64,000 nt of DNA from TPA_inf: Saccharomyces. Its lineage: Eukaryota. The stretch is taken from contig BK006948.2 of NCBI GenBank assembly GCA_000146045.2, positions 192,001-256,000 on the forward strand. Direction: 5' to 3'. Made by a program: the position numbers and the translations under genes. The notes beneath the pieces are model-generated. The model did no database searches. It worked only from the letters and a program-made list of their open reading frames with translations, and was not told the origin of the DNA. Positions 15,177-50,747 of this stretch are shown here, one piece after another (within the stretch, counting starts at the first letter, position 1; each line of letters starts with the position of its first letter).

Positions 15177-15391
15177 AGTAAAGTGCTGATGTCTTCTGAG
15201 TTGTCTTTAAACTTCTTACTTACTAACTAATAAATTAAAGAGAAGTGCAAACGTTCTTTATATGTGGCATGGTTTCTTCTTTGCAAACTGAAAGTAAAAT
15301 CGCAACACGTGATATTGCTCGTCTGAGTCATTCGCGCATTTCAATGAAGGAAGGATTATTATATAGATGGCTATGTAAATGTCAAAATATG

Positions 15392-48203: not shown

Positions 48204-48947
48204 TCATTCCTTCTTTCTTTCACCCTTTAGTAGCGAAGTACACCATTTAGCTGCACCAACAGTGTTGCTAGATATGGTGACTATTGTGAAGAAGGGTATT
48301 AACTCTAGTAGACCGGCAGACATACCGAAACATATGAAACTTGCGTAATGCTCGTACTGAAAATCTTTGGCCTGTTTCTTACTGAATCCCTTTAGTAAAA
48401 AGTACCTCTGCAAATAGGTAAAGGTTCTTTTTGGGGCCATTAGTTGATTTGCCAAGATTGGTCCTACAATAGGAATTAGCGACAGTAATGTTAGTGAAGT
48501 AAAATTGGAGACTTTAAAAAACATTCTGAATAGTAATCTGGGAATCTTAAAAATCCGACTTCCCTTTATTGTGTTGAAATTTCTCACCGCATCAGGTTCA
48601 TCGATTTTTCTATGTGGCTTTTGTGGTTTAGGCAATACCTTCACCTCGTTTAGAAATTCATCTTGGTCTTGCAACACCAAAGATATATCAAATATCTGAT
48701 TCGTAATATGGGTCAGGACCAGTGTTCTACAAACAAAGGCAGTCAAGACATTCGTTTGTAAAATCCATTGAATATGAACCAGTATCACACCAAGAGGCCC
48801 TAATAACAGTATGGCCCATGTCACTAAAAGCGGTACAAGTGTGACATAAAAGAGACCAGCAATAGTGACAAAAATCAGGGCATAGCAAACCGCAAACAGT
48901 AAAATATGCTTCCAATAAACAGGATTCGTCAGCACTTCATAAAACCC
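48204..48947 (-). CDS. RRT8: RRT8 exon 2 (247 codons plus stop), multi-pass membrane protein.
   Basis: In-frame continuation GFYEVLTNPVYWKH... after the TAG acceptor at 48948-48950. Paralogous to exon 2 of the next gene. Confidence 0.7.
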   Translation of the reverse strand, partial: GFYEVLTNPVYWKHILLFAVCYALIFVTIAGLFYVTLVPLLVTWAILLLGPLGVILVHIQWILQTNVLTAFVCRTLVLTHITNQIFDISLVLQDQDEFLNEVKVLPKPQKPHRKIDEPDAVRNFNTIKGSRIFKIPRLLFRMFFKVSNFTSLTLLSLIPIVGPILANQLMAPKRTFTYLQRYFLLKGFSKKQAKDFQYEHYASFICFGMSAGLLELIPFFTIVTISSNTVGAAKWCTSLLKGERKKE

Positions 48948-49025
48948 CTACGGTTAACAAATAAAAATTAAATATGTTAGTCATAAAACAAGTCATATCA
49001 ATGCAAACAAAAATCATGTACTTAC

Positions 49026-49310
49026 TAAGAATGGGTAGATAAATGCTCTTGAGTTGAAAATTTCTTTAATGAAGTTTTTTCTAAGCAGTTCGTATCTCAC
49101 TTTCATTGTTGGTATCGTTTCAGGAAACCAAATATCAAACTGTCTTATGAAAATCTTTAGCCAACGACTTACGTTACTTTCCTTTGAAGAACTGTGTTCT
49201 TTGAATTGTCTTTTTAAACGTTGTGGCCCCTTTTCTGCAAGGGTCATAGAATTAGCATATGTGGCGTGAGAAGCCTGGCTGTGACTTATAAGCTCAATTC
49301 CGGCTTTCAT
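49026..49310 (-). CDS. RRT8: RRT8 (LDS family, spore-wall and lipid-droplet protein), exon 1 (95 codons). Intron at 48948-49025: 5'SS GTAAGT, branch GACTAAC, 3'SS TAG.
   Basis: ATG at 49308-49310. The exon-1 ORF ends 3 codons after a perfect GTAAGT. A branch-point-like TGACTAAC and a CCGTAG acceptor join in-frame to the downstream 247-codon ORF. Confidence 0.7.
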
Positions 49311-49613: not shown

Positions 49614-50441
49614 TCATGGCGGATTAATGTGAGCTATAGATTGTTGGATTGGAGGTGCATAGGATCCTACAGTAGGCTCTTCTGGTTCCGCAGGAGGGGA
49701 AGGAGGTACGGCTGGCTGGTCCCGGTCTTTTATCTCTTTAACTATCCAAAGCGAAGCACCTACTGCGTTTGTTCCAATGAACAACCCACCCAGAATGGGA
49801 ATAGACTCTAATAAACCGCTGGATATCGAGTAAAGGAGCCACTTGGCAAAGCCCTTGTAGTAAACTTTGGAAAGTTTGCGCGAATCCAAATGTAGCACGT
49901 CAACAAAATAAGGCTCAAAATAGTAAAATCCCATTCCGGGGCTAAATGGTAGCATATTGATTGTAATTGGACCCACTATTGGAACGAGCAACAATAAAAG
50001 AAACATAAAGGCTATGAAGATGTACCAGAAGAAAAAAATGAAAAACTGCGGCAAAGAGACGAGGTAAAACCGTTTCGAAAAGAGGCCACCCAAACGATGT
50101 GACCTTCTGTAGACAAAGGGCGTGAAACTTATCGTTTCACAGGCTTCACTCAACTCTGTTAATCCCTTTCTTGCGAACGTCACTCCATAAATACGTGTGA
50201 AAAGAACGAAATCGGTACCCTTCACCATAGAATTACATAGCGTTGTGGAAATCAGAATAGTTTGCATATAAGCCAGAGGTAACGCAAAGAGTCCGAGAAA
50301 GGGCAAATAGATGCACACTAACAAGGACCACGCAAGGATTGACGTAAACGCAACAATAAGCAGGAGATTCAGCAGGTAGTATCCAAATATTAGGAAAAAT
50401 AGATGCAAATAATCCGAGTTTCCCACGGATTCGCTAATTCC
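49614..50441 (-). CDS. LDS2: LDS2 exon 2 (275 codons plus stop), multi-pass membrane protein.
   Basis: ORF track ORF (TTG-initiated at 50447) trimmed to the splice acceptor; homology to the RRT8 exon 2 product. Confidence 0.65.
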   Translation of the reverse strand, partial: GISESVGNSDYLHLFFLIFGYYLLNLLLIVAFTSILAWSLLVCIYLPFLGLFALPLAYMQTILISTTLCNSMVKGTDFVLFTRIYGVTFARKGLTELSEACETISFTPFVYRRSHRLGGLFSKRFYLVSLPQFFIFFFWYIFIAFMFLLLLLVPIVGPITINMLPFSPGMGFYYFEPYFVDVLHLDSRKLSKVYYKGFAKWLLYSISSGLLESIPILGGLFIGTNAVGASLWIVKEIKDRDQPAVPPSPPAEPEEPTVGSYAPPIQQSIAHINPP

Positions 50442-50504
50442 CTTCAAAGGCGGTTAGTATGACGGCTTAAAAAACATGATCTGCTTATTGGAACATCAAC
50501 ATAC

Positions 50505-50747
50505 TTTATACGGATACCAGATGATCTGGTGCGACGACTCTAGGTCTTTCCAAAAATTGTCTTTAACAAGCATAGCATTCTTGTACCATCGAACTATCGG
50601 AGCCTTGTATGCCATCCAAATTTTTGATTTCTTATGGTTCCCTTGGTCTTGGATGGGGAGTAATTGTGGTTCCTCCCCTTCTGCCAGTGGCGTAGAGGCA
50701 TATGGATGTCTATGGTAATACCAATCAGGTTGGGGTCTAGTCGACAT
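50505..50747 (-). CDS. LDS2: LDS2 (paralog of RRT8), exon 1 (81 codons). Intron at 50442-50504 (63 nt): 5'SS GTATGT, branch TACTAAC, apparent 3'SS AAG.
   Basis: ATG at 50745-50747. ...WYPYK is followed by GTATGT. CATACTAACC lies 12 nt before GAAG|GGA. The join is in frame, and the exon-2 start (G-I-S-E...) aligns with RRT8 exon 2 (G-F-Y-E...). Confidence 0.65.

Follow-up and report, generated by a model that had tools for sequence, protein, structure and literature searches.

An AAG 3' splice site 12 nt from the branch point in the LDS2 intron of Saccharomyces

AAG Acceptors in Yeast Introns and the LDS2 Locus

Introns ending in AAG are rare in Saccharomyces cerevisiae, as was held in the original prediction that led to this analysis. 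The standard introns listed by Talkish et al. 2019 comprise 15 AAG acceptors against 156 TAG and 126 CAG, which places AAG at 15 of ~297 (~5%), and the class is called "standard" in that work (PMC6726248). Among the described cases, a distance of 12 nt separates the branch point from the AAG in S. bayanus RUB1, and the second intron of the Y' element uses the first AAG past the branch site (PMC6726248). Both resemble LDS2 (YOL047C) in combining GTATGT and TACTAAC with an AAG near the branch point, while they belong to different genes. TFC3 resembles LDS2 in another respect, as productive splicing uses its proximal AAG, which is followed shortly downstream by an out-of-frame YAG, namely a CAG located 30 nt from the branch point. 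This CAG lies 17 nt beyond the AAG and accounts for ~27% of the spliced product in upf1-delta, whereas the corresponding UAG of LDS2 lies 8 nt off and is undetected at a 3-read threshold. A proximal AAG does not always prevail, since it loses to a distal YAG in ECM33, APE2, and DMC1. The closest described system is the annotated YOL047C/LDS2 intron itself (SGD and the Ares-lab list), from which the intron examined here shows no difference in sequence, coordinates, splice sites, branch point, or protein.

The locus was examined within a window, which denotes here the whole stretch of 64,000 nucleotides that was analyzed. A window coordinate equals the chrXV coordinate minus 192000, because the published YOL047C intron and branch point map exactly onto the window with this offset. 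The features of LDS2 and of its tandem paralogue RRT8 are listed in Table 1, together with the homologous introns of three other yeasts. On the minus strand, a GTATGT following ...WYPYK and a perfect TACTAAC are both present as predicted. The donor (GUAUGU), the branch site (UACUAAC), and the branch-AG distance all match those of standard GT-AG introns of S. cerevisiae, and the acceptor deviates from the YAG consensus in having A instead of a pyrimidine at position -3. The sequence 3' of TACTAAC reads CGCCTTTGAAG/GGAATTAG/CGA, in which the TAG located 8 nt beyond the AAG is composed of the last base of an Ile codon and the two first bases of a Ser codon (ATT AGC); a third AG appears 136 nt from the branch A. 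As a side observation, exact TACTAAC heptamers occur 6 times in the window, compared with 6.8 expected by chance, and the five others are located at 15221, 23069, 57424, 58789, and 58891 (plus strand).

Table 1. Window coordinates of the LDS2 and RRT8 features, and properties of the homologous introns.
Feature	Position in window	Strand	Description
LDS2 (YOL047C) exon 1	50505..50747	-	ATG at 50747 to ...WYPYK; 243 nt, 81 codons, ends in phase 0
LDS2 spliceosomal intron	50442..50504	-	63 nt; annotated as chrXV 242442-242504
LDS2 5' splice site GTATGT	50499..50504	-	Consensus
LDS2 branch site TACTAAC	50453..50459	-	Consensus; branch A at 50454
LDS2 used 3' splice site AAG	50442..50444	-	First AG past the branch point, 12 nt from branch A
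LDS2 downstream TAG	50434..50436	-	Second AG, 20 nt from branch A, out of frame; no detectable use
LDS2 exon 2	49614..50441	-	Starts GGA ATT AGC (G-I-S-E-S...); 275 codons + stop
LDS2 exon-2 inverted repeat AAUCCG-N9-CGGAUU	about 50408-50435	-	Putative hairpin
RRT8 (YOL048C) exon 1	49310-49026	-	Tandem paralogue of LDS2
RRT8 intron	49025-48948	-	78 nt; GTAAGT / GACTAAC / TAG; branch point to acceptor 29 nt
RRT8 exon 2	from 48947	-	
Lachancea meyersii homologue, intron			124 nt; CAG; branch point to acceptor 21 nt
Tetrapisispora phaffii homologue, intron			91 nt; TAG; branch point to acceptor 27 nt
Naumovozyma dairenensis homologue, intron			103 nt; TAG; branch point to acceptor 39 nt

Splicing at the AAG removes 63 nt, leaves a phase 0 junction, and opens a reading frame extending to 49614 that encodes 356 aa. 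Splicing at the TAG removes 71 nt and causes a frameshift, which leads to a stop 66 codons past the junction and a product of 147 aa. The unspliced message would be terminated earlier still, two codons into the intron, to give 83 aa. The AAG is hence the only in-frame acceptor, as had been claimed; the claimed shift of the frame at the TAG was also recovered, although the distance to the stop had been put at about 70 codons. The AAG-spliced product is identical, residue for residue, to Lds2p of S. cerevisiae S288C (UniProt LDS2_YEAST, "Outer spore wall protein LDS2"), whose sequence was found on 64 contigs, and 356-aa orthologues are annotated for S. paradoxus, S. mikatae, S. kudriavzevii, and S. 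uvarum. The LDS2 AAG junction is correct and already known, being both reference-annotated and published. The present finding adds little in this regard: it rediscovers the reference annotation, and shows that a non-consensus acceptor can be recovered from sequence alone. We read the locus as a known constitutive intron whose AAG is docked first by second-step selection, leading to the 356-aa protein, and assign this reading a probability of roughly 0.93.

Use of the Two Acceptors in Published RNA Data

The most direct evidence was obtained from Talkish et al. 2019 (PMC6726248), who analyzed rRNA-depleted RNA of NMD-deficient upf1-delta cells before and 60 min after rapamycin addition. Their S1 Table lists YOL047C among the "Standard introns" (chrXV 242441-242504 with a 0-based start, minus strand, 63 nt, "Ares intron") as GTATGT / TACTAACC / AAG, with the branch located 51 nt from the 5' splice site and 12 nt from the 3' splice site. 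The intron sequence given in that row is identical to that of the window. For YOL047C, no junction reads were counted before rapamycin (0 and 0), compared with 42 and 14 once it had been added (PMC6726248). The junction-read check that accompanied the original prediction is thereby answered with a total of 56 published reads at the AAG junction. Upon rapamycin treatment the exon-2 coverage increased from ~8/2.5 to ~40/25 (PMC6726248). The rise in junction reads is the sole hint that LDS2 might belong to the meiosis-regulated introns (Mer1/Nam8-dependent or competition-sensitive), and it mostly reflects transcript induction. All these S. cerevisiae reads originate from vegetative, rapamycin-treated cells, while LDS2 is normally expressed in sporulation. 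A single read was also reported for the orthologous AAG junction of S. mikatae (PMC6726248).

Reads joined at the TAG and an absence of splicing had been named in advance as the outcomes that would speak against the AAG, and neither was found in published tables. The S2 table gives alternative junctions overlapping standard introns, which become more visible when NMD is absent; with rows going down to 3 and 2 reads, it contains no YOL047C row and no TAG junction at 242433/242434, and neither does the complete S4 table of "filtered reads" (PMC6726248). With 56 reads at the AAG and none listed at the TAG, use of the TAG can be estimated as below ~5% if it had 0 reads, or below ~10% if as many as 2 reads went unreported; a TAG use of a few percent is thus compatible with the 56-read depth. 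That a consensus UAG located 8 nt downstream is apparently silent even without NMD is one of two mildly new points of this analysis.

Other data sets agree with this assignment. The supplement of Kawashima et al. 2014 gives YOL047C as GTATGT / AAG. In the part of the Roy et al. 2023 supplement covered here, LDS2 is recorded with AAG (class "RAG"), a branch point at chrXV 242454, a distance of 12, and matching intron coordinates, and the same part contains no LDS2 junction other than the annotated one. A vegetative reporter carrying the natural YOL047C intron was measured by Schirman et al. 2021, in which a fraction of 0.80 was spliced at the AAG, 0.09 was cryptic, and 0.11 was unspliced. The internal ATGs were altered in this construct, and natural exon 2 is represented by 5 nt only. 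Since the reporter is thus devoid of the natural TAG, it indicates that the AAG is competent and does not address the competition between AAG and TAG. A search of main texts in the literature for the YOL047C/LDS2 intron gave nothing relevant, and the record sits in supplementary tables. Davis et al. 2000 (NAR) were reportedly the first to test this intron experimentally. Identity to the reference protein, junction reads, conservation in six species, and splicing of the reporter all agree that the AAG is a functional acceptor, as was originally proposed.

We considered whether both acceptors are used, such that the out-of-frame 147-aa product is degraded by NMD and a conserved, unproductive valve tunes LDS2 in the manner of TFC3. 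The pair of a proximal AAG and a distal YAG, 8 nt apart, is indeed kept in 6/6 Saccharomyces species, and the NMD-sensitive CAG of TFC3 gives a precedent. Cryptic 3' splice sites are also used more often in natural AAG introns than in those ending in YAG (PMC8496845), and the paralogue RRT8 uses an alternative AAG located 13 nt downstream of its main acceptor, for which 48 reads were published in upf1-delta against 2009 for the main junction. Such a product should, however, be stabilized by upf1-delta, in which 56 reads were found at the AAG while the TAG was absent down to the 2-3-read rows, and the covered part of the Roy et al. 2023 supplement again gives the annotated LDS2 junction alone. 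The conservation of the YAG is fully accounted for by the ATY AGY codons. We consequently consider such a valve improbable, with some room left for a low-level or sporulation-specific use of the TAG. Equally little credit is given to a condition-dependent switch, built on the invariant combination of a weak AAG at 12 nt and a YAG at 20 nt (in sporulation, with temperature, or under limiting Prp17, Prp18, Fyv6, or Prp22), for which the ratio would be set by a hairpin in exon 2. If this switch were true, ligation at the YAG would produce either an NMD substrate or a 147-aa protein, and outer-spore-wall assembly would be placed under control at the level of splicing.

Conservation in Saccharomyces and Choice of the Acceptor

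The LDS2 loci of S. cerevisiae, S. paradoxus, S. mikatae, S. kudriavzevii, S. uvarum, and the S. eubayanus-type subgenome of S. pastorianus were compared. Across 6/6 species, neither the TACTAAC nor the AAG nor the 12-nt spacing changes, while the eight spacer bases from TACTAAC to AAG vary among them. S. cerevisiae, S. paradoxus, S. mikatae, and S. kudriavzevii have GTATGT as the donor, while S. uvarum and S. eubayanus have GTACGT. The two exons keep constant lengths of 243 nt and 828 nt, whereas the intron measures 63, 62, 61, 62, 59, and 62 nt in the six species; the mean pairwise identity is 0.83 for exon 1, 0.80 for exon 2, and 0.62 for the intron. In each of the six species, the 356-aa product is obtained via the AAG only. 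Splicing at the YAG at 20 nt leads to a premature stop in all of them, which is encountered directly past the junction in four species. The comparison with sensu stricto species that the original prediction had called for therefore favors the AAG, which is invariant and alone keeps the 356-aa frame. The downstream YAG is also kept in 6/6 species, where it is formed by ATT or ATC (Ile) followed by AGC or AGT (Ser). Coding constraint on these Ile-Ser codons (ATY AGY) suffices for its conservation.

The same comparison bears on whether there is a functional intron at all, the alternative being that chance motifs lie between separate ORFs or within a pseudogene. A single S. pastorianus record, along with several calls derived from assemblies, does give only a 277-aa ORF (MKGISES) or exon-1 fragments of 100-104 aa. 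The 277-aa "Lds2" was rejected as an artefact, since its start is a TTG inside the intron, as in bacterial-style gene calling, and the S. pastorianus DNA behind this call retains the intron with its AAG intact. The 100-104-aa entries were likewise rejected as exon-1 read-throughs of unspliced gene calls. The faulty entries include S. pastorianus L006 3001-3834 and the proteins P0003, P0018, P0019, and P0028, with a 264-aa fragment, likewise from an unspliced gene call, among them. Absence of an intron is refuted by the published junction reads. Furthermore, the composite signal GTATGT-N(30-60)-TACTAAC occurs 1 time in the 64-kb window, compared with 0.03 expected from shuffles, and between exons of fixed length the intron varies by numbers of bases not divisible by three, while splicing at the AAG brings back the frame in all six species. 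This alternative is accordingly regarded as next to impossible.

For the constitutive use of the AAG, the following course is proposed. The consensus donor GUAUGU would pair with U1, and the consensus branch site UACUAAC with U2. After branching at A 50454, the first AG past a minimum of ~10 nt would be docked, which is the AAG at 12 nt. The A at position -3 would be tolerated, and ligation at the AAG would precede competition from the UAG 8 nt further on, so that exon 1 and exon 2 would be joined in frame to encode the outer spore wall protein of 356 aa. The downstream YAG would persist as Ile-Ser coding sequence and not as a splice signal. Anatomy, frame, identity to the reference protein, AAG junction reads, and conservation are direct observations on LDS2, and it is the cause of the choice, namely proximity to the branch point, that we infer. 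Properties of other introns are consistent with this course. Natural introns have their acceptor no closer than 10 nt to the branch point, a distance for which Prp18 was proposed as a ruler (PMC10711555). AAG reporters behave like the wild type (PMC12707134), and synthetic AAG introns are spliced as well as those with CAG or UAG (PMC8496845). A "first AG" rule alone may not be the whole explanation, given the behavior of ECM33, APE2, DMC1, and TFC3. In contrast to these four genes, LDS2 provides a clean natural case in which proximity to the branch point would outweigh the strength of the acceptor.

Another possible contribution is RNA structure, as the inverted repeat AAUCCG-N9-CGGAUU, at about 50431-50411, follows directly after the LDS2 TAG, and in four of the six species an extension of it would cover the AG of the YAG. 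A hairpin formed by this repeat might hide the YAG, by which structure would replace or supplement proximity. The repeat is found in 6/6 species, with 91% of its pair cells being standard compared with 30-38% when the partner columns were slid, and the folding z ranges from -2.2 to -2.6 in S. mikatae, S. kudriavzevii, S. uvarum, and S. eubayanus. For most species, folding predicts that the G of the YAG is largely paired, and masking of cryptic 3' splice sites by a stem has been documented in COF1 and UBC13. These observations are offset by the fold of S. cerevisiae (z = -0.93) and S. paradoxus (z = -1.23), which is not better than that of shuffles, and by the extension covering the AG, in which pairing is interrupted for S. 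cerevisiae and S. kudriavzevii. The predicted accessibility of AAG and YAG is also inconsistent across species and folding windows, and compensatory changes are zero at every pair. As the stem is located within conserved coding sequence, its own conservation is uninformative. The predicted hairpin may hence be an unproven contributor, and coding conservation alone is a possible account of the repeat; that the hairpin takes part in the choice appears doubtful, though less so than the use of both acceptors.

The Paralogue RRT8 and the Age of the Intron

RRT8 and LDS2 share 26% identity (BLASTP, E = 4e-16), and both introns are in phase 0. The predicted alignment of the two junctions was reproduced, since BLASTP pairs K81/G82 of LDS2 with L95/G96 of RRT8, with no gap at this site. 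Thus, ...YPFL/GFYEV of RRT8 and ...YPYK/GISES of LDS2 mark a homologous intron position, at which the acceptor is canonical in RRT8 and AAG in LDS2. Further RRT8 variants were noted in upf1-delta, comprising an upstream alternative GTAAGT donor with 14 reads and a GC-AG variant with 11.

Outgroup and RRT8-like homologues were reached by an exhaustive HMMER search. The search for protein homologues of Lds2 gave three clusters, and the same three were obtained at a looser E-value. Homologues in Lachancea, Tetrapisispora, and Naumovozyma contain a phase-0 intron at the same ...YPxx/G... position (Table 1). The syntenic Lds2p of Nakaseomyces bracarensis (378 aa; L010 1501-2637) and the "YOL047C" homologue of Zygosaccharomyces parabailii (294 aa; L011 1501-2385) are both intronless. 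Since these two lack the intron that is kept in Lachancea, Tetrapisispora, and Naumovozyma, independent losses in the family are implied. Judged from the compared sequences, the intron position is ancient in the LDS2/RRT8 family. The AAG state of Saccharomyces LDS2 looks derived, as its relatives end in TAG or CAG at 21-39 nt, and the AAG together with the 12-nt spacing looks to have been fixed before the Saccharomyces radiation. The second mildly new point lies here, in that an AAG at 12 nt is genus-wide while homologous introns have a YAG at 21-39 nt.

The protein family was also examined with Pfam, which has no bearing on the choice of splice site. The search of Lds2 gave no match, and spliced Rrt8 (window 48204-49310) gave a sub-threshold hit to EI24/CysZ (PF07264; 31.1 bits against a cut-off of 32, E = 3.3e-07). 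Sequence similarity at this level suggests that the EI24/CysZ membrane-protein fold may include the LDS1/LDS2/RRT8 spore-wall family as a divergent branch.
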